From Stegostoma tigrinum (Eukaryota), in NCBI RefSeq assembly GCF_030684315.1, contig NC_081358.1:20774810-20838809 (forward strand): 64,000 bases of DNA, written 5' to 3'. Position 1 is the stretch's first letter; each line of letters starts with the position of its first letter. The notes beneath the pieces are model-generated. The model was not told the DNA's origin. It ran no database searches and saw nothing but the letters and a program-made list of their open reading frames with translations. Below, piece by piece: positions 7,371-58,174 of this stretch. The position numbers and the translations under genes are program-made.

Positions 7371-8869
7371 GGTATTACATATTGATGTGTAATTTTGACA
7401 TTAAGCCACCCTATCTCAGAGTAGGCACCCTTTGACTCCACCAATTTCTAGCACCCTTACCCTTGCACTCAGTATCTGTGGTATGGTTGAATCACACCTG
7501 CAGTTCTGTATCTCTCCCCAGAGTTCTGTGGTTTCCTTTTCTGCAAGAGAAGGAGTGGGAGACTTAACAAGTGAGAGTAATTTGCTATGGTGAGCACCTG
7601 GGTGGAAAGGATTTATTGGGGTAATTATTGGACACTGTCATAACTTTACGTAAAGATGAAGGTGAGAATCTGTGGTGGATAAAGTTTTAAGTCCAGAGAC
7701 ACTCAGTGATGGAGATACCTGTAAGATAAGTTGGTAGGGGGAATAATACAGTGGAGTAGGATTGAGAAGAAAGAAAGGGAGAAATGCGTGGCAAGTTCTT
7801 TACACAGAAGGTGGTGGGTGCCTGGAACACGTTTCCAGCGGAGGTGGTATGGGAATGATACATGTATAAAGAATATAAAGAATATAACCATCGCTGTTTG
7901 GCTTAGGAACAAGGTCCTGCATATTATTCAGGAATCATACGCATGCTTCTATTGTGCTACCTCCAATTTATTGTTGCCTCAGCCTCCTCTTCCCTTCGGC
8001 TTTAGAGAACAAGTCCCTCTGTTTTGCTTAGTCGTCAGCAGCACACTAGGCAGGCACTCTTTGGCCTGCTACTTTACAAGACAACACCCCAGTGTCCTTT
8101 ACCATGTTGCTTTAAAAAAGTTTCCCCTCTTAATAGTGGAGTTGACATTAAATCATGTTATGTGATACTAATTGCTCAGCAAAACTGGAAATCATGTGTG
8201 AATGCACTGGCTGGGTTATAAGAAAACAAACACTGATAGATATACTGCACTTAATTCTGGTTTCCCAAACAATCCTGACCCCATGCTATTTTCTGAAACA
8301 TTTTACAATATTAACAAATGAGAAAAACATTGGAGATAGTAAGTTGACATTTTGATAGAGATATGAGGGATATTTCAATTGCTACGTGATACCATTGGCT
8401 TATGGCAATTTCTGTAGAAGGTACTGTTGTCAATTTCTTTCATGTCACACGGAATTTTTATACAAACATTGTCAGGTTACATTAATATCTTAGTAGTTAT
8501 ACCAGAGATAACAGCCTAAGACTCGATCACACTGAGTTATGGGCCAATTATCTGAACTGTTCCAATAAAAACTACTCAGTGTATATAATACTCCATGGGT
8601 GACAAATCCATAATATTATGAGGAAAAGAACACTCACTTTTTCATGACATTAGAAAGATGGAAAAAAAAAAGTTTATCAGGTCCCTAGAAGGGCTACTTA
8701 GCAGCAAACTAAAATATAGTGACAAAGTGCAAATGACAGCCTTGTTTGAAATTGCATAAGATGTCACATGGGTTAATGTCTGCTTTAAAAAGCAAGCAAA
8801 TCAATTAAACCTTGGCAAACTAATACAAGCTCTGTGCAAATTCAAGTACAAACTGCAAAGAGATTCTGT

Positions 8870-9027
8870 AAGACAACAAAATGTGAGGCTGGATGAACAC
8901 AGCAGGCCAAGCAGCATCTCAGGAGCACAAAAGCTGTGCTCCTGAGATGCTGCTTGGCCTGCTGTGTTCATCCAGCCTCACATTTTGTTGTCTTGGATTC
9001 TCCAGCATCTGCAGTTCCCATTATCTC
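8870..9027. mobile_element. Fold-back mini-insertion of the Neptune 3' tail
   Basis: Perfect 60-bp inverted repeat (8870-8929 / 8935-8994) with a 5-nt loop. TSD AAGAGATTCTGTAA at 8858-8871 and 9028-9041. Confidence 0.93.
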
Positions 9028-9362
9028 AAGAGATTCTGTAATGTGTTCAAACGTGGAGGACCTACATATTTCCCATATGCACCTGCAAGGACCAGGATCA
9101 TCAGTTAAGGCAGACATGTCACTGAATATATCACAAGACAGTGGCATCCATTCAGGTGCAGCTTTGGCCACTAGAAACTCTATCAGATTTCTGATGCTAC
9201 AAGTTATATTCCTGGATATAATTGCAAGTCCCCTTACTTGGATTGCCAGTGCTTGTTCATTCTTCATCTGACACAAGCAAATGATGCCTGAATTCCTGGT
9301 GGATTTGCTGCTGTCTGTCACATGCTGAGCCACAACATAGTAGGTGGTAATAGGGCAAGAAA

Positions 9363-10579: not shown

Positions 10580-11420
10580 TTATAGAGTCATGGAGCTGTA
10601 GAGCATTGAAACAGACCCTTCGGTCCAACTAGTCTATGCTAACCAAACATTCTAAAGTAATTTAGTCCCATTTGCTAGCATTTGGCCTATATCCTCTAAA
10701 TTCTTCCTATTCATATACCTATCCAGTTGCCTTTTGAATGTTGTAATTGCCAGCCTGTACCACCTCCTCTCACAGCTCATTCTATCCACGTACTACCCTC
10801 TGTGTGAAGAAGTTACCCCTTCCTTAGGTCCCTTTTGAATCTTTCCCCTCTCACCTTAAATCTATCCTGTCAAAGTTGGACTCCCATACCCCGGGGGAAA
10901 GACCTTGTCTATTCACCCTATCCATGGCCTGGATGATTATATAAACCTTGATAAGATCACCCCTCAACCTCTGACTCTCCAGGAAAAATAGCCCCAGGCT
11001 ATTCAGCCTCTCCCTATAGCTCAAACCCTCCAACATCCTTGTAAATCTTTTCTAAACCCTTTCAACTTTTATACATCCTTCATATAGCAGGGAGACCAGA
11101 ACTGAACTCAGTTATCCAGAAGTGACCTAACCTCTCTGATGAAGGGTCTAGGCCCGAAACGTCAGCTTTTGTGCACCTGAGATACTGCTTGGCCTGCTGT
11201 GTTCATCCAGCTTCACACTTTGTTATCTTGGATTCTCCAGCATCTGCAGTTCCCATTATCTCTGACCTAACCAATGTCCTGTACAACCGCAACATGACCT
11301 CCCAACTTCTATACTCAATGCACTGTCCTGTAAAAGTGCTTGAACGAAAAACTTTCTTCACTAACTATCTACCTGCCACTCTGCTTTCAAGGAACCATAA
11401 ACCAGCATCCCAAGGTCTCT
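10580..11420 (-). mobile_element. CR1 LINE 3' fragment
   Basis: LSYRERLNSLGLFFLE.QRLRGDLIKVY. Interrupted by the hammerhead mini-insertion. Confidence 0.85.
11133..11262 (+). mobile_element. 130-bp hammerhead + PLE tail mini-insertion inside a CR1
   Basis: Starts 3 nt before CTGATGA (11136) and ends CCCATTATCTC. TSD TGACCTAACC at 11123-11132 and 11263-11272. Confidence 0.92.
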
Positions 11421-12960: not shown

Positions 12961-13668
12961 AAATGAACAGTCATACAGCACGGAAACAGATCCTTCAGTC
13001 GAACTCTCCGCTCAGACACCTCTCCACCATCATTCACTGGGTGGGGCACCACTCACCTGGTTCCATTCTTGACTATCTAATTGTATCCCGAGTAGAACTT
13101 GCCTCCCAGTGCTGTTTACTGCACTGATCCACAGGAATTTAATCTACATTTTGCCCTCAGTGGTATTATCTAAAGGCAGACATTAATTTTCGTACGTACT
13201 GTAAGTGATGGTGCTGAGCTTTATTTCTCCACTTGTTAAATTATCAGGCTGCTTATCTGGCATCTAGTATCTGATGAACAGCCATTTCCTCCAACGAAGT
13301 ATCAAGAAAATGAAATCTATTTTCAGTACCTATTCCAAATTTCATTTCCTAGCCATCAGCTACATTGCTCTCCATGGGAACTGATTACATTTCACAATTT
13401 TGACATCACAGTTGATCCCAGATAAATGTCTGACCTCACACTCATGCTGTCACTAAAACCACTTGTTTCCACCTTCATAACATTACCCAACTTCACCCTG
13501 TCTTAGCTCAGCTGCTGGTAAAACCCTCCATTATGCTTTTATTACCTCTAGACACAACTACTGTAATCCTGTGATAATGGGAACTGCAGATGCTGGAGAA
13601 TTCCAAGATAATAAAATGTGAGGCTGGATGAACACAGCAGGCCCAGCAGCATCTCAGGAGCACAAAAG

Positions 13669-13700
13669 CTGACGTTTCGGGCCTAGACCCTTCATCAGAG
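13669..13700 (-). ncRNA. Minimal type I hammerhead ribozyme motif in PLE tail
   Basis: CTGATGA-A-GGGTCTAGGCCC-GAAA-C-GTC^AG: full catalytic core, extra A after A9, and a loopless palindromic stem III (ACGT). Stem I is only ~2 bp. Confidence 0.8.
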
Positions 13701-13923
13701 AGGGGGATGGGGAGAGGGAACTGGAATAAATAGGGAGAGAGGGGGAGGCGGACCGAAGATGGAGAGTAAAGAAGATAGGTGGAGAGGAGAGTAGGTGGGG
13801 AGGTAGGGAGGGGATAGGTCAGTCCAGGGAAGACGGACAGGTCAAGGAGGTGGGATGAGGTTAGTAGGTAGATGGGGGTGCGGCTTGGGGTGGGAGGAAG
13901 GGATGGGTGAGAGGAAGAACCGG

Positions 13924-15846
13924 TTAGGGAGGCAGAGACAGGTTGGACTGGTTTTGGGATGCAGTGGGTGGGGGGGAAGAGCTGGGCTGGTTGTGTGGTG
14001 CAGTTGGTGGAGGGGACGAACTGGGCTGGTTTAGGGATGCAGTGGGGGAAGGGGAGATTTTGAAGCTGGTGAAGTCCACATTGATACCATTGGGCTGCAG
14101 GGTTCCCAAGCGGAATACGAGTTGCTGTTCCTGCAACCTTCGGGTGGCATCATTGTGGCACTGCAGGAGGCCCATGATGGACATGTCATCTAAAGAAAGG
14201 GAGGGGGAGTCGAAATGGTTTGCGACTGGGAGGTGCAGTTGTTTGTTGCGAACTGAGCGGAGGTGTTCTGCAAAGCGGTCCCCAAGCCTCCGCTTGGTTT
14301 CCCCAATGTAGAGGATGCCGAACCGGGTACAGTGGATGCAGTATACCACATTGGCAGATGTGCAGGTGAACCTCTGCTTAATGTGGAATGTCATCTTGGG
14401 GCCTGGGATGGGGGTGAGGGAGGAGGTGTGGGGACAGGTGTAGCATTTCCTGCGGTTGCAGGGGAAGGTGCCGGGTGTGGTGGGGTTGGAGGGCAGTGTG
14501 GAGCGAACAAGGGAGTCACGGAGAGAGTGGTCTCTCCGGAAAGCTGACAGGGGAGGGGATGGAAAAATGTCTTGGGTGGTGGGGTCGGATTGTAAATGGC
14601 GGAAGTGTCGGAGGATAATGCGTTGTATTCGGAGGTTGGTAGGGTGGTGTGTGAGAACGAGGGGGATCCTCTTGGAGCGGTTGTGGCGGGGGCGGGGTGT
14701 GAGGGATGTGTTGCGGGAAATACGGGAGACGCGGTCAAGGGCGTTCTCGATCACTGTGGGGGGAAAGTTGCGGTCCTTGAAGAACTTGGACATCTGGGAT
14801 GTGCGGGAGTGGAATGTCTTATCGTGGGAGCAGATGCGGCGGAGGCGGAGGAATTGGGAATAGGGGATGGAATTTTTGCAGGAAGGTGGGTGGGAGGAGG
14901 TGTATTCTAGGTAGCTGTGGGAGTCGGTGGGCTTGAAATGGACATCAGTTACAAGCTGGTTGCCTGAGATGGAGACTGAGAGGTCCAGGAAGGTGAGGGA
15001 TGTGCTGGAGATGGCCCAGGTGAACTGAAGGTTGGGGTGGAAGGTGTTGGTGAAGTGGATGAACTGTTCGAGCTCCTCTGGGGAGCAAGAGGCGGCGCCG
15101 ATACAGTCATCAATGTACCGGAGGAAGAGGTGGGGTTTGGGGCCTGTGTAGGTGCGGAAGGGGGACTGTTCCACGTAACCTACAAAGAGGCAGGCATAGC
15201 TGGGGCCCATGCGGGTGCCCATGGCCACCCCCTTAGTCTGTAGGAAGTGGGAGGAGTCAAAAGAGAAGTTGTTGAGTGTGAGGACGAGTTCAGCTAGGCG
15301 GATGAGAGTGTCGGTGGAGGGGGACTGGTCGGGCCTGCGGGATAGGAAGAAGCGGAGGGCCTTGAGGCCATCTCCATGCGGAATGCAGGTGTACAGGGAC
15401 TGGACGTCCATGGTGAACATGAGGTGTTGGGGGCCAAGGAATTGGAAGTCCTGGAGGAGGTGGAGGGTGTGGGTGGTGTCACGGACGTAGGTGGGGAGTT
15501 CCTGGACCAAAGGGGAGAAAATGGAGTCCAGATAGGTGGAGATGAGTTCGGTGGGGCAGGAGCAGGCTGAGACGATGGGTCGACCAGGGCAGGCAGGTTT
15601 GTGGATTTTGGGAAGGAGATAGAAACGGGCCGTGCGGGGTTGGGGAACAATGAAGTTGGAGCCTGTGGGTGGGAGGTCCCCTGTGATGATGAGGTCGTGT
15701 ATGGTGTTGGAGATGATGGTTTGGTGCTCGGGTGTGGGGTCATGATCGAGGAGGCGGTAGGAGGTGGTGTCGGAGAGTTGGCGTCTGGCCTCGGCGACGT
15801 AGAGGTCAGTGCGCCATACTACCACTGCGCCACCCTTGTCTGCGGG
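13924..15846 (-). CDS. 5'-truncated but uninterrupted PLE ORF: reverse transcriptase + Cys linker + GIY-YIG endonuclease
   Basis: PADKGG, YLLPKIHK, GRPIVS, DVQSLYT, GVAMGTRMGPSYA, RYIDD, CNRRKCYTC linker (Neptune-like) and VVYCIHC..LYIGET..RF.EH. The listed start codon is an artefact of the junction. Confidence 0.93.
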   Translation of the reverse strand, partial: PADKGGAVVVWRTDLYVAEARRQLSDTTSYRLLDHDPTPEHQTIISNTIHDLIITGDLPPTGSNFIVPQPRTARFYLLPKIHKPACPGRPIVSACSCPTELISTYLDSIFSPLVQELPTYVRDTTHTLHLLQDFQFLGPQHLMFTMDVQSLYTCIPHGDGLKALRFFLSRRPDQSPSTDTLIRLAELVLTLNNFSFDSSHFLQTKGVAMGTRMGPSYACLFVGYVEQSPFRTYTGPKPHLFLRYIDDCIGAASCSPEELEQFIHFTNTFHPNLQFTWAISSTSLTFLDLSVSISGNQLVTDVHFKPTDSHSYLEYTSSHPPSCKNSIPYSQFLRLRRICSHDKTFHSRTSQMSKFFKDRNFPPTVIENALDRVSRISRNTSLTPRPRHNRSKRIPLVLTHHPTNLRIQRIILRHFRHLQSDPTTQDIFPSPPLSAFRRDHSLRDSLVRSTLPSNPTTPGTFPCNRRKCYTCPHTSSLTPIPGPKMTFHIKQRFTCTSANVVYCIHCTRFGILYIGETKRRLGDRFAEHLRSVRNKQLHLPVANHFDSPSLSLDDMSIMGLLQCHNDATRRLQEQQLVFRLGTLQPNGINVDFTSFKISPSPTASLNQPSSSPPPTAPHNQPSSSPPPTASQNQSNLSLPP

Positions 15847-15864
15847 CACTGACCTCTACATCGC

Positions 15865-16931
15865 CTCTCAGTCTCCATCTCAGGCAACCAGCTTGTAACT
15901 GATGTCCATTTCAAGCCCACCGACTCCCACAGCTACCTAGAATACACCTCCTCCCACCCACCTTCCTGCAAAAATTCCATCCCCTATTCCCAATTCCTCC
16001 GCCTCCGCCGCATCTGCTCCCACGATAAGACATTCCACTCCCGCACATCCCAGATGTCCAAGTTCTTCAAGGACCGCAACTTTCCCCCCACAGTGATCGA
16101 GAACGCCCTTGACCGCGTCTCCCGTATTTCCCGCAACACATCCCTCACACCCCGCCCCCGCCACAACCGCTCCAAGAGGATCCCCCTCGTTCTCACACAC
16201 CACCCTACCAACCTCCGGATACAATGCATTATCCTCCGACACTTCCGCCATTTACAATCCGACCCCACCACCCAAGACATTTTTCCATCCCCTCCCCTGT
16301 CAGCTTTCCGGAGAGACCACTCTCTCCGTGACTCCCTTGTTCGCTCCACACTGCCCTCCAACCCCACCACACCCGGCACCTTCCCCTGCAACCGCAGGAA
16401 ATGCTACACCTGTCCCCCTGTCCCCACACCTCCTCCCTCACCCCCATCCCAGGCCCCAAGATGACATCCCACATTAAGCAGAGGTTCACCTGCACATCTG
16501 CCAATGTGGTACACTGCATCCACTGTACCCGGTGCGGCTTCCTCTACATTGGGGAAACCAAGCGGAGGCTTGGGGACCGCTTTGCAGAACACCTCCGCTC
16601 AGTTCGCAACAAACAACTGCACCTCCCAGTCGCAAACCATTTCCACTCCCCCTCCCATTCTCTAGATGACATGTCCATCATGGGCCTCCTGCAGTGCCAC
16701 AATGATGCCACCCGAAGGTTGCAGGAACAGCAACTCATATTCCGCCTGGGAACCCTGCAGCCATATGGTATCAATGTGGACTTCACCAGTTTCAAAATCT
16801 CCCCTTCCCCTACTGCATCCCTAAACCAGCCCAGTTCGTCCCCTCCCCCCACTGCACCACACAACCAGCCCAGCTCTTCCCCCCCACCCACTGCATCCCA
16901 AAACCAGTCCAACCTGTCTCTGCCTCCCTAA
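15865..16931 (+). pseudogene. Inverted partial PLE ORF copy (RT thumb + GIY-YIG), frameshifted
   Basis: Reverse complement of ~13924-14982. An 8-bp tandem duplication CTGTCCCC near 16410-16425 shifts the frame. Confidence 0.92.
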
Positions 16932-17153
16932 CCGGTTCTTCCTCTCACCCATCCCTTCCTCCCACCCCAAGCCGCACCCCCAGCTACCTACTAACCTCAT
17001 CCCACCTCCTTGACCTGTCCGTCTTCCCTGGACTGACCTATCCCCTCCCTACCTCCCCACCTACACTCTCTCCACCTATCTTCTTTACTCTCCATCTTCG
17101 GTCCGCCTCCCCCTCTCTCCCTATTTATTCCAGTTCCCTCTCCCCATCCCCCT

Positions 17154-17185
17154 CTCTGATGAAGGGTCTAGGCCCGAAACGTCAG
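17154..17185 (+). ncRNA. Minimal type I hammerhead ribozyme motif in PLE tail
   Basis: Same motif, CTGATGAAGGGTCTAGGCCCGAAACGTC^AG, with predicted cleavage after 17183. Confidence 0.8.
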
Positions 17186-19444
17186 CTTTTGTGCTCCTGA
17201 GATGCTGCTTGGCCTGCTGTGTTCATCCAGCCTCACATTTTATTATACTGTAATCCATTCCTGGTTAGTCTTCCCTAAACTACTGTATGTCAACTTAAGG
17301 CCATCAAAACTGCTGCCTGTGTTTTAATTCTCAGCAAGTCCCAATCCCCTGTCTCCTCTGGATTTGTTGACCTGTATTACTGGGTCCTTGTCAAAATATG
17401 TCTTTATTTTAAAGTCCACATTCTTGTTTAGAAATCCTCCAAGGCACCCTCTTCTATCTCTGTTATTTCCTCAGGTCCAAGAACACTCTTGAAATATCTA
17501 CTTTCATCCCATTCTGGACTTTGGAATATCTACAGTTTGAATTACTCAAAGATTGGTGGTTTTGCCTTCAGTTGTCTTTGCTCCAAGCTCTGGAAGACCG
17601 TCCTATGCATCAACACCTGTTGCTCCCTTAAGACACCTACTTGAGCCATCTTGCAGTAATCTGACCCAATATCATCTTCTGTGGCTTTGTTTTATAATGT
17701 TTATGCAATGTGTGTCGGGACGTTTCATTACATTAAGGGTACCATATAAATTTAAGTTGTTGCTGTTGTCGATTTAAACATTCACAGCTGAAGGTTAAAT
17801 CTTGAGTGAACAAGTTACTAACATCAAATGCCAAACTGCTATCAATAAACAACCAGATGCTTTAATTTTTAAAAACTGAAAAGATTTTTGGACTGGAATT
17901 CCTTGGATTCTGCTGATCTGCCATAAGGAAAGTGAGAGACTGGTAGAACATTGCCAGAGAATATTGCAACATGGGGCATGCTCGTACTTTGCCTTTTACA
18001 GAATTCTCTTTCTTGGCATGAAAATGGCAAAAATTCTAGTTCATCCTTCAAATGAAGTTAACACCAAGGCTTGACTAAAACATTCTGACTTTGCAAAGCA
18101 GATCCTATATATAGGGAGCTACTGGTATCAGGTAATAAAATAAGTTATATTTATGTCATTCATATGTCAATTGAAAAGATACAGGCAGAGGTTTCTAGTG
18201 TATTATAATAGTTAACATTTTTGAACTAAGATGAATCACCCTTAGCAGGTCAGAATTCTAACCTTGCTTTTAAAGGAAGGTAAGTACCTTTAGTCAAGCT
18301 TGTGTTATGACCGGATAAGGAGGGATTTAATGGTTTCCCTCTTTATCCACTCCTCATTTGAGCACAACAGGTTTTTTACCAAGGAGTGAGTACAAAAGTC
18401 ACACAGCCAAGTTTTCTTGAGCTTTAAATGGATGTTTTTTTTTAAATTGTATTTAATCTGGTCTAAGACAAACAATAAATAAAACTCAAGTTTTTTTCAC
18501 ACAGATAAAATTGATTCACACTCACTCCTGCCAAAGTGGTTTAAAGATATAGAGGAGCAACTTATCTGCTCTTTTGAAAAAAGCATCTGCTGGTGCTGAG
18601 TTCTTTTCAAAAACTGGGTGGAACTGCAGTTGGTTCCATTCTTGTCTAGTCTGTCAAAGCCAGAGAAGAACTTGCAATGCTTCTATTTCTATTATTCCCT
18701 ACTATCATCTCAGTTTGTAGAATTTCCCAGCCACCAGCTGGTGGATTGAGAATCAATGGCTCCAGTTAAATAGCAGGAGGGTGCATTGGGATGGGTCCTT
18801 GACACAGCCCTGGCCCAGTGATGCCTTCCCACCTATTGATGACAAGGTCGATTGGCTGACTACAGCTATTTTGCATCATTAAAGGCCCAACTAAAGGCCA
18901 GTTCTTAGAGCCACCAGTACTTTTCCATCTGTGAGATGTCATTGAGCTAGTGTCCCTGCCTTAATTTGGATAGCACTAAATGGGGTCAGCAGCATCAGGA
19001 GCCTGCCTGCCTGCTGTCTTTATTTGAACAGTGAGCAATTAAGTAGGCACTTAGGAAACTGCTACAGTAAAATGACACACTTGGTCCTGCTGATATCAGA
19101 GGTGGCCTTGGAACTTATTTTTCTCCCCCAGCGTGAGGATCCCAAAGCTCAGCAAAATTCAGCTCAAGATCGCTACACCGCTAAACTTATTTGCCTTTAG
19201 CTTTTTCCAGACAGTAGTAGGGGATGTCAGCAACATTAATCAACCTACAGTTGACAACTGTATTAAGAAGGAGGCTGATCCATGTTCAACACAATGTCTA
19301 TGAACAACTGGATCTCCAGGGGTAATACAGTACTTGAGTTCATATCTGTTTTAACTGAACACATTGCCAAGCTGGCTTTCTGGGTGAATATGGGCTGACA
19401 AAAATCACAAGATCCTGTCCTCCTGAGAGGTACTTGCTGTTGTT

Positions 19445-25087: not shown

Positions 25088-25163
25088 TTTTCTGATGAAG
25101 GGTCTGGGCCCGAAACGTCAGCTTTTGTGCTCCTAGGATGCTGCTTGGCCTGCTGTGTTATCT
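25088..25163 (+). mobile_element. 76-bp hammerhead mini-insertion
   Basis: Intact core starting at 25092. Candidate TSD AAAAATC at 25081-25087 and 25164-25170. Confidence 0.85.
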
Positions 25164-51044: not shown

Positions 51045-51620
51045 AGTTTTAGCAAAGATTTGTAACTCGGGTTGTGGGTGAGATTGTTGACTTGCTCACT
51101 GAGCTGGCTTGTTTTCATTCAGACATTTCAGCACCATGTGAAGTAACATCATCAGTGAGGCCCCCGATGAAGCGATGCTGTTCTACTCTGCTTGGAATTT
51201 ATACAGTCCAGGTCCATTCTGGTGAATAGTGCGATTTCCAGCTTTGTTCTGTATGGGTTTGTATATGGGGTCGAATTCTATATGTTTGTTAATTGCCTTA
51301 TGTGTTGGGAATCATGCCTCTAGGAATTCCTGTGCCTATCTATGTTTAGCTTGGGCTACTATAGTTACATTGTCCCAGTTAAACTGATGGGCTTCATTGT
51401 CCGAGTGTACTGGTACTGAGGAAAGTTTGTTGTGTCGTTTTGCTGCTAGCTGAAATTCATGTATTCTGATGGCTAGTTTCCTTCCTGTCTGTCAGATGTA
51501 ATGTTTGTGGCAGTCGTTGCATGGTATTTTGTAAACTACGTTGGTTCTGCATGTTGTGGGAATGGGGTCATTAACCCTTGTGAGTGTTTGTCGTAGAGTA
51601 TACAAACCCATACAGAACAG
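51045..51620 (-). mobile_element. Poseidon-type Penelope 3' fragment (GIY-YIG + hammerhead)
   Basis: Minus strand reads TNVVYKIPCNDCHKHYI*QTGRKLAIRIHE...HQFNWDNVTIV..EFLEA..INKH. Hammerhead CTGATGATGTTAC...GAAATGTC at 51120-51157. Confidence 0.88.
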
Positions 51621-55140: not shown

Positions 55141-58009
55141 GATTTTATGATATTTTTCTGGAAGTTGACGGAAGTTGATCATAGACTAAATGTGAGATTT
55201 GAAGCTTAGTTTAGCTTTAAACAGAACATCCAGGTTGCTTTTATACTAGGAAAGGACAGGGGAAATCAGGAACTAAATGCTTCTACATAGTCTCATGATG
55301 AAATCATTGATAGAGGCTTTGAAAGGTTGCATAACCACTATATAAACTGATTGTCACTGTCATTGTTTCTTTACTTCACAGTGTAAAGATTTATTGAAAT
55401 TCAAAACATGTAAAGATAAAGTCACCATCATGACCACGTCAGATTGTAGGGCTGCTGTCCTATTAGAGAGTGAGAGACGGTTTAACCTGTGGGTGACTAC
55501 GTCTCAGACAAGGGGAGAGGTTGAGAAGGCGAGTTCTTCATGGTAACCTCATCTAGTGTGGGAATTGAGTCCATAATGTTGGTGTCATTCTGTATCAGAA
55601 ACCAGCCATCTAGCTGGCTAAGCCATCTATTGTTCTCCCCCTATGACTATCTAGCCCTTGGCTCATGAATCAGTAATGATATATTCCTACGTTTTGGACA
55701 GCACCTGGAGGAAAGGCTGAGAATAACAGGAACACTGAATGTACTCTGGTGGGAGTCTCCAATGTGCATCACCGAAAGTGCCTTGGTACTACCATTTGAG
55801 CTGGCCGAGCCCTGGAGAACAAAACTGCCGTACTCAACTGCACCAGTAGTGAGGGAATCAATATGATGGAAAACTCTACCTCATCTTCATCAATCTACAT
55901 ATTAACAGGTGTGTCTTGTCCAGGACCATATTGATAAGAGTGACTAGTGCAAAGTCCTTGTGGAGATGAAATTCCGTCTTCATGTTATAAGTGCCGTCTG
56001 TTGTGGCGTTGCCACCATGCAATACGGGACATGCTTTGAACAAATCTAGCCCCTCTAAACTGGGCCTCCGTGAGACACTGTGGATCATCAGTAGTGACAG
56101 AACTACAGTTTAATCACAATCTATAATCTTATGGCCTCGCATTTTCCCTATTTCCTTTTCGCCATCAAACAAAAAGATAAACCCTGTTATGTGAATGTAC
56201 GAGGACATGTCAAAATCACTACCAACCATGTGTAAAAATGAGATGCAGAGTGGAACTACTTGTGTGCCAAACAGAAGATGCAGCGTGCAATAGACAGGGC
56301 TATGCAGTCCCACAACCGGGTTAAGCTCTGCAGTTCTACAACATCCAATCTTGAATGGTTGTGGAATGGGAACTGGGACTCCATAAATATCTGGTCCTTG
56401 ATTATAGGGAAGCCAAGTGTGTCAGTGCAAAGGACAAGGCTGAAGCATCAACCAGAAGTCCCTAGTGAATCACAGCCTTCTCTGGAGGTCCCCAGCATCA
56501 AGGATGTCAGCCTTCAACCAATGCAGTTCTATGCACGTGATCATAAAAAACATCTGAGGTCACTGGATTTTGCAGTGGCCTTGAAAACATGGAAAAAATA
56601 TTGAAGACTTGTGCCCTGAAATAGCCAGGCCTCAAACCAAACTGCTCCAGGACAGCCACAGCATTAACATCTATCTGGCAATGTGAAAAAGTTCCTGAGT
56701 ATGTGCGCAAAACAAAACAAATCCCACATAGCCAGTTTGCATCCTACCAGCCTACTCCTAATCATCTGCAACGTGATGGAAGGGATCTCAGATGCTTCTT
56801 CCAAGTGACATGTTCAAAGTAATAACTTGTTCGTTGGCACTCAGTTTGTGCCCTGCCAGTCACTCAGTTTCTCAATTTATTTCAGCATTTGATAAAACAT
56901 GAACAAAAGAGTTGAACTCCAAAGATGAGATGAGAGAAACTGCCCTTAACATCAGTGCAGTATTTGACCAAGTAGGGCATCAACATCAGGATGCTGTAGC
57001 AAAATTAGGATTGAGTAAAAACTAGGAAAGCTGTTTACTGGTTTGAGTCATATCTAACACAGAAAGGAAGATGGTTGTTAGAAATCAGTCATCTCAACCC
57101 GAGAAGTTCCTCAGAGCAATCCACAAAGCCCAACCATCTTCAGCTGCTTCATCAATGACCTTCCATCAATCATAAATGGAAACGGGGGGGATGTATGATG
57201 TTCAGCATGAGTTGCAATTCCTTAGGCACTGAAGTACCCCATGTACACTTATAGCAAGTCCTGGACAACACCAGGCGTCTGATAGTAAGTGGCAAGTAAC
57301 ATTGCCTAACATTTCTGTGGCATGAACGACCACCTTCAATGAGAGAACCTGAACATTTTGTCTTTGATGTTCAATGGCATTAGCATTATTGAATGCTTTG
57401 CTATTAAAATCCTGATAGTTACCATTGACAAGAAGCTGGAAGAGTAGACCAACCAGTGTCCATAGGAATACTGTTGCGGGTAACTCCCCTGCTATCTCCC
57501 CAATTTCTGTCTTATCTGAAAAGGCACAAATTTTTAGAGTCACGTAGCATGGACGCAGACCCTTCAGTCCAAATAGCCCATGTCAACCATAAATACCAAA
57601 TTAAACTTGTCCCACTTGCCTGCTCCTGGCCTATTATCCTCCAAACCTTTCCCTGTTCATGTACTTGTAATTGTGTGCACATTCACCATTGGATAGATGT
57701 GAGGTATTGCATTTTGGTGAAACAAAGAAAGGTAGGAGTTGTACAATTAATGCTAGGGCCCTGTGTTGAACTGAGAAAAAGATCTAGGTGTATACAGTTC
57801 TTTGAAATTTGTGTCACGGGTAGATAGAATGATTTAGAAGGCATTCAGCATGCTTGCCTTTATTGCTCAGTCCTTTGAGTAGAAGAGTTGGGATATCATA
57901 TTGAGGTTGTACAGGACATTTTCTGGAGTACTGTGTGCCATTCTGTCTGCTCTGCTGTAGGAAGGATATTATTAAATTAAAAAATATTTACCAGTATGTT
58001 CCAGAGCTA

Positions 58010-58174
58010 GTAGAAACTGCAGATGCTGGAGAATCCTAGATAACAAGGTGTAGAGGCTGGATGAAGACAGCAGGCCAAGCAGCATCAGAGGAACAGGAGG
58101 TTGACGTTTTGGGCCTAGACCCTTCTTCAGACTTCTTAAGAAGGGTCTAGGCCTGAAACATCAGCCTTCCTGCT
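58010..58174. mobile_element. Inverted pair of PLE tails with two diverged hammerheads, inside a CR1
   Basis: Minus arm runs through GGGCCTAGACCCTTCTTCAG, followed by plus arm CTTAAGAAGGGTCTAGGCCTGAAACATCAGC. Confidence 0.85.

Follow-up and report, generated by a model that had tools for sequence, protein, structure and literature searches.

In the genome of Stegostoma tigrinum, a few thousand copies of a Penelope-like element (PLE) end at or within one base of the bond that the element's own minimal hammerhead ribozyme is predicted to cut. These genomic ends, together with A-rich scars at the same site, likely record that, in living cells of the germline, a minority of the RNAs made from this element is cut by the ribozyme. 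We consider it quite probable that two-armed insertions of this family can arise from hammerhead-cut RNA, with cleavage, which we infer from sequence, acting as a side route.

A hairpin insertion that turns near the predicted cleavage site

The window, a 64,000-nucleotide stretch of contig NC_081358.1, contains a hairpin insertion at 8858..9041. Positions within the element are numbered on its sense strand, with +1 being the first base 3' of GTC. The insertion is flanked by a 14-bp target-site duplication (TSD), AAGAGATTCTGTAA, at 8858-8871 and 9028-9041 on the plus strand, and the two copies are identical at 14/14 positions, just as the earlier note had it. Between them lie an inverted arm on the minus strand (8870..8935, element +1 to ~+65), which begins at the short reverse transcriptase (RT) start site, with an AA that overlaps the end of the TSD, and ends at the predicted hammerhead cleavage site, and a direct arm on the plus strand (8935..9027, element +7 to ~+99), which begins at the long RT start site. 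The insertion had been described as a perfect 60-bp palindrome turning exactly at the cleavage site. The arms do form an inverted repeat of 60 nt each (8870-8929 and 8935-8994), 100% complementary and spaced by 5 nt, but the plus arm runs 33 nt further through an optional tail (8995-9027), so the insertion is only partly palindromic, and the turn is asymmetric in that the minus arm alone reaches +1 while the plus arm begins at +7/+8.

The letters at the end of the minus arm, AGCTTTTGTG (8926-8935, minus strand), are the same as those 3' of CTGATGA..GAAACGTC in four copies in the window. Although the minus arm ends at +1, base 8936 (G) also pairs as the complement of the C in GTC, which creates a 2-nt TG microhomology joining both arms (8935..8936); because of it, this single locus resolves the break no more finely than -1..+2, rather than precisely at +1 as had been proposed, and by itself it proves little about cleavage. 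No ribozyme core lies within the insertion, again as previously observed. An Rfam scan of the window matched no hammerhead model and returned miRNA-like matches to the hairpin only, all of them below the gathering score. The identical 28-nt junction was found 48 times in the genome, and most of the 30 junction loci that were read are distinct insertions whose flanks differ. Amplification of a single hairpin, as in a MITE, was ruled out, since flanks, TSDs, subfamily letters and arm order vary among these 30 loci.

The parent element and its hammerhead

Pattern matching identified a minimal hammerhead core in a reference copy of the same family at 13671..13698 (minus strand) and further cores of this family at 11136-11163, 17156-17183 and 25092-25119 (plus strand); the pattern thus matches four times in the window, compared with 0 matches in 100 shuffles. 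The core has the features of a minimal type I hammerhead, namely an extra base after A9, a G10.1-C11.1 pair and a palindromic 15.2-16.2. We refer to the family of this insertion as family A and to other hammerhead-bearing families in the fetched loci as B, C and D. The predicted stem I is 2 bp long in family A (UC/AG context), and its pairs are GUU/AAC in family B, UCA/UGA in family C and UU/AG in family D; between the four families there is variation at position 7 and at the cut-site base, and the stem I pairs change together. The lowest-energy fold predicted for the monomer is a helix of CUGAUG with CGUCAG (-11.4 kcal/mol), which is catalytically wrong, and a modelled double hammerhead reaches only -5.5 kcal/mol.

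Upstream of the hammerhead, a 643-aa open frame (13924..15855, minus strand) represents the 5'-truncated parent element. Reading its translation by eye, we found a single ORF with an RT, a CxxxxCxxC linker and, at the C terminus, a GIY-YIG-type endonuclease motif (motifs DKG, YIDD and YIGET, linker CNRRKCYTC); Pfam gave RVT_1 at E=1.6e-4, below the curated cut-off, and no GIY-YIG match for this frame. This organization, like an inverted copy that is 5'-truncated and bears a tail of 30-40 bp on one side, is that of EN+ Penelope-like elements, and CNRRKCYTC fits the CX2-5CxxC linker between RT and endonuclease that is described for Neptune and Nematis (PMC8557442). The parent is a predicted GIY-YIG Penelope-like element with a Neptune/Nematis-type CxxC linker, and the label "Neptune" used in the earlier note fits this linker, which is common to both groups. 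The intact-looking 643-aa frame lies in a 3.7-kb head-to-head insertion of the same element (13561-17246) with one long-tail arm, one short-tail arm and a TSD of ~12 bp.

Element ends pile up at +1 across the genome

Genome-wide 5' ends were counted with patterns that demanded three mismatches and then the exact consensus. They yielded 3095 ends at +1 versus 459 at -1, 167 at -2, 399 at +2 and 308 at -5, so that the predicted spike directly after GTC is present relative to the four compared positions. Here and below, tallies of 100 matches comprise the first matches by position, a non-random sample, and were counted by hand unless scripted. Among the matches listed at +1 (100 of 3095), 63 were AGCT-centred palindromes, 10 were AGC microhomology joins and 27 were other; the 73 palindrome or microhomology joins (AAA/AGCT and AGG/AGC, respectively) correspond to about three quarters of the raw +1 count. 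Among the matches listed at -5 (100 of 308), 24 were palindromes centred on ACGT, which lies 5 nt upstream. Extrapolated from the matches listed, these proportions amount to ~1950 AGCT-centred versus ~74 ACGT-centred palindromes, a ~26-fold difference.

When only the "other" class is corrected for the mismatch filter, ~4,200 ends fall at +1, or about 2-3% of copies, a figure that rests on the pattern counts and on 75 bystander copies. The 3.2-Gb genome holds 151,569 element copies that match -8..+24 exactly (CpG decay allowed), and 0 of the 75 unselected bystander copies in the fetched loci end at -1/+1, in line with the 2-3% estimate. Plain 3' ends did not pile up at -1 (~2-3/100 among the matches listed), and small deletions before the site (96, many with 1-nt microhomology) were not commoner than in a control window (218).

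The main local 5'-end hot spot of family A lies elsewhere, at -28..-34 (window 11133 and 25091), just upstream of the hammerhead core. Ends at these positions, where 16 of the 75 unselected bystander copies stop, are often at hairpin joins of the AGAG/CTCT type. This hot spot near -31 exceeds the +1 signal, and the ribozyme does not explain it. A pile-up of bystander ends at -48 proved to be a mismatch of the reference copy.

Direct tandem junctions also break at +1

Direct tandem junctions test the +1 boundary independently, because the AGCT palindrome cannot act there, and the break position was left free in these counts rather than selected. Among the matches listed in a 124-match search (100), 47 break at +1 (32 loci), 6 at -1, 5 at -2 (TC microhomology), 4 at -3..-16, 9 at -17 (TCT microhomology), 0 at +2/+3 and 29 at +4..+11. 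A 259-match search, whose gap limit makes it blind to breaks further upstream than -2 where the commonest re-entry point is used and to which each array contributes several matches, gave 67 at +1, 6 at -1, 6 further upstream and 21 downstream (100 among the matches listed). A scripted tally of 30+30 stored tandem loci placed 13 and 15 at +1. The breakpoints are thus neither evenly spread nor due to AGCT alone, as the spike persists in direct tandem junctions and A-rich inserts mark the same site.

In 9 of 10 inspected loci, which were selected as arrays and contain up to 8 units, the internal units start at +1; the exception (L204) restarts at +11. Re-entry points are constant to within 1-2 nt per array. 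Within one array, the units are almost the same but their junctions vary by 0-2 extra bases, and the extra bases at tandem junctions are mostly A. For the R2 RT, untemplated addition has been described as needed for template jumping (PMC8857657). Rolling-circle copying of one circular RNA is ruled out for arrays with junction-to-junction variation and may account for uniform arrays. The array units begin at +1 and do not include the hammerhead core, unlike those of a non-LTR retrozyme, described as tandem units each holding a hammerhead (bioRxiv 10.64898/2026.07.22.740005).

Two other tandem arrangements were observed. Nine tandem copies with a 208-bp period, each broken near -5, lie at G000:C2:58043053-58044748 and probably reflect later satellite-like amplification, and a tandem 32-nt unit spanning ~-24..+9 of the hammerhead occurs in both orientations at G000:C1:153754340-153754773.

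A-rich scars end exactly before +1

Genome-wide, 155 insertions of at least 2 nt fall within -8..-1. Of the 100 insertions among the matches listed, 37 are A-rich runs, 2-12 nt long, whose last base directly precedes +1; 27 of these 37 keep GTC or ATC whole, while the remaining 10 are trimmed, with 7 losing 1 nt, 2 losing 2 nt and 1 losing 4 nt. A control window 20 nt downstream, analysed with the same design, contained 89 insertions, mostly local duplications, of which at most 2 were A-rich (Fisher p=3.6e-10, the site sample being the 100 among the matches listed). The simplest reading is that a scar would mark the freed 3' end of the 5' cleavage product, sometimes trimmed, then A-tailed and rejoined, possibly by either RT jumping or RNA ligation; the As themselves could stem either from RNA tailing or from RT stutter. 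At one locus (L105:1425-1825, G000:C1:101.40 Mb), the element sequence of both arms stops at the hammerhead site, and each arm then runs on into the same 18S rRNA position, a single case that would fit a chimeric RNA ligated before copying.

Two sister families lack the signal

Family C is hammerhead-bearing (window ~51050-51190, minus strand; L117, L145 and L252); its stems I and II measure 3 bp and 6 bp, respectively, and its tail apparently comes in two lengths. Its stem I is better than that of family A. No +1 spike was seen in its 402 matches (~3/100 at +1 among the matches listed, where breaks spread over -11..+10), and 0 of its 11 inserts were A-rich. The absence of the signal from family C provides a negative control for the method, yet it also means that the effect is shown in one family only. 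In family D, 0 of 100 inserts among the matches listed were A-rich, in a list that a permissive pattern had filled mostly with hairpins; its tandem junctions, a small number of cases, included 1 at +1 out of 7. A hairpin of this older family is present in the window at 58002-58170, with its turn near -28 and the core inside one arm.

Hairpins pair one long arm with one short arm

We classified arms as short (ending at or before +75), long (+76..+110) or extended (scored longer). Unequal arms were found in 99 of 101 simple hairpins in the fetched loci (91 short and long, 7 short and extended, 1 long and extended), with the other 2 having two short arms. Arm ends in the 101 hairpins cluster at +62..+67 and +98..+106, and their TSD lengths peak at 14-15 bp, the mode to which the 14-bp TSD at 8858..8871 belongs. 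If start sites were picked independently, many equal-armed pairs would be expected, in contrast with the 99/101 observed to be unequal. In 74 of the 101 hairpins, the two arms carry the same letter at each of the 5 subfamily-diagnostic sites, compared with a shuffled mean of 17.5 and a maximum of 28; later gene conversion may also produce such agreement. The hairpin is made of two oppositely oriented 3'-end copies, one per start site, and we infer that two cDNAs were primed from the two target strands and joined at their far ends, both probably having been copied from one RNA. The rule of one long and one short arm lends support to the view that Penelope inverted repeats originate from priming on both target strands.

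Alternative explanations for the +1 boundary

The boundary could form on uncut RNA if the RT stalled at +1 in the CUGAUG/CGUCAG helix (-28..+2), stuttered on the A at +1 and then jumped or resumed. The non-catalytic monomer helix ending at +2 keeps this explanation alive: it is the lowest-energy monomer fold, with its 3' edge at +2; family D has a weakened version of it and family C has none, the signal being seen in neither; and stutter would likewise yield A-runs. However, a stop caused by the helix is expected first at +2/+3, where 0 of 100 tandem breaks among the matches listed occur. Moreover, 10 of the 37 A-rich scars among the matches listed have lost 1-4 nt, like a trimmed free 3' end, several scars contain mixed bases, and a stop on the exact base predicted from hammerhead chemistry would be a coincidence. 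We therefore regard stalling as unlikely.

It is more doubtful still that +1 is a physical RNA end of another origin, made by a protein nuclease at the base of the helix or by transcription initiation. Transcription start sites follow a pyrimidine-purine rule, which the C-A step fits, and the hot spot near -31 shows that further defined ends exist. From a capped start one would nevertheless expect an additional G ahead of +1, as for LINE-1, whereas the extra bases are mostly A, and a start site cannot explain upstream sequence that has been rejoined via A-rich linkers; a nuclease would have to coincide with the hammerhead site. Finally, a repair artefact, in which cDNAs of any length are trimmed until the self-complementary AGCT anneals, has next to nothing to recommend it as the whole answer, for although 63 of 100 +1 ends among the matches listed are perfect AGCT palindromes, 10 more use AGC microhomology and a 2-nt microhomology is present at the 8858..9041 locus itself, matches to the ACGT palindrome, of the same length and only 5 nt away, are ~26-fold fewer and neither direct tandem junctions nor A-rich scars can use the palindrome, so that AGCT annealing is largely refuted as sole cause and is instead an amplifier of the hairpin class.

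Hammerhead cleavage as a probable side route to insertion

The hairpin was likely copied from RNA that had been cut at +1 by the element's minimal hammerhead. According to this model, the endonuclease would nick both target strands ~14-15 bp apart, and each nick would prime reverse transcription, one at ~+64 and the other at ~+100, probably on the same RNA. On cut RNA, both cDNAs would run off at +1, and their ends would be joined via short microhomology, often AGCT, sometimes after trimming (to +7 at 8858..9041). The RT may sometimes re-prime and recopy the short RNA, giving arrays whose units start at +1, and the two cleavage products may sometimes be rejoined through an A-rich linker. The minimal hammerhead would cut roughly 2-3% of templates; because most templates (~97%) would be uncut, cleavage would be a side route that insertion does not need. 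The earlier proposal that the RT copied a self-cleaved RNA to its 5' end holds up at the level of the family, for a minority of templates, while the 8858..9041 locus itself is ambiguous owing to its microhomology. The generality of the model is limited by the 151,569 read-through copies, the larger hot spot near -31 and the two signal-free sister families.

A broader possibility, towards which we do not quite lean, is that a cleaved short RNA with a fixed 5' boundary is copied repeatedly onto a chromosome break and that the genome keeps the fates of both cleavage products. If so, re-priming near its own start sites would amount to telomerase-like repeat addition by telomerase's closest retroelement relative, and the fates retained would be 5' pieces that had been A-tailed before being rejoined, as well as a 5'-OH end linked with a fragment of rRNA.

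Minimal PLE hammerheads, inverted repeats with a one-sided tail and ribozyme-defined R2 junctions are already known; our literature search, in which subscription journals and supplements were thinly covered, turned up no publication describing genomic ends, arrays or A-rich scars located at the hammerhead site of a PLE. Since thousands of heritable copies mark one bond through their ends, repeats and A-rich scars, the possible cutting by animal PLE hammerheads inside cells can be examined in any species for which an assembly exists. Plain counts of breakpoints do not tell cutting from microhomology; the tests based on oligo-A scars and on tandem junctions do.

Comparison with known systems

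The family A hammerhead shares with those described by Cervera and de la Pena (2014, PMC4209133) the core CUGANGA/GAAA/UH, the extra base between 9 and 10.1, the G10.1-C11.1 pair and a loopless palindromic helix III; such a hammerhead has been reported for Neptune elements of fish, and a helix I of 2 bp for D. virilis (PMC4209133). The portion of that paper available to us gives low in vitro activity for minimal PLE hammerheads and states that in vivo evidence is absent, whereas in S. tigrinum the site is marked by genomic ends and scars. Under the circular-RNA model of that paper, junctions should be uniform; of the arrays in S. tigrinum, several vary from junction to junction and others are uniform.

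A biochemical parallel comes from the PAc protein of Anolis carolinensis Poseidon, a predicted dimer that nicks and extends both strands, uses two RT starts and is required for its hammerhead to cut (Frangieh et al. 2024, PMC11167929). Both systems would thus share nicking and extension of both strands, two RT starts bounding the tail, a protein-assisted hammerhead and uncut RNA as the main template. They differ in that, as far as the accessible text of that report goes, Poseidon has no strand difference in start site, while nearly every hairpin here has one long and one short arm, and Anolis RNA-seq has no reads ending at the hammerhead site, while a minority of insertions end there in S. tigrinum.

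Head-to-head 5'-truncated copies with a 30-40 bp tail at one end and a TSD are also features of the inverted pLTR with its optional tail and junction palindromes (PMC3846280; Craig et al. 2021, PMC8557442). Arkhipova et al. (2013, PMC3846280) explain the palindromes by self-priming, the template being antisense. As that model is set out in the sections available, the one-long-one-short rule, the asymmetric junctions and the one-sided arrays fit two-strand priming better.

Like the R2 element with its HDV-like ribozyme (Eickbush et al. 2013, PMC3774820), the S. tigrinum family has junctions that record the cleavage site, untemplated bases and joins at microhomology. For R2, as presented in the parts of that study available to us, cleavage has been demonstrated in vitro and it is the cut that sets the 5' end of the full element; in S. 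tigrinum, in contrast, the hammerhead lies near the 3' end, the products are 65-100 nt and non-coding, and a few percent of events are involved.
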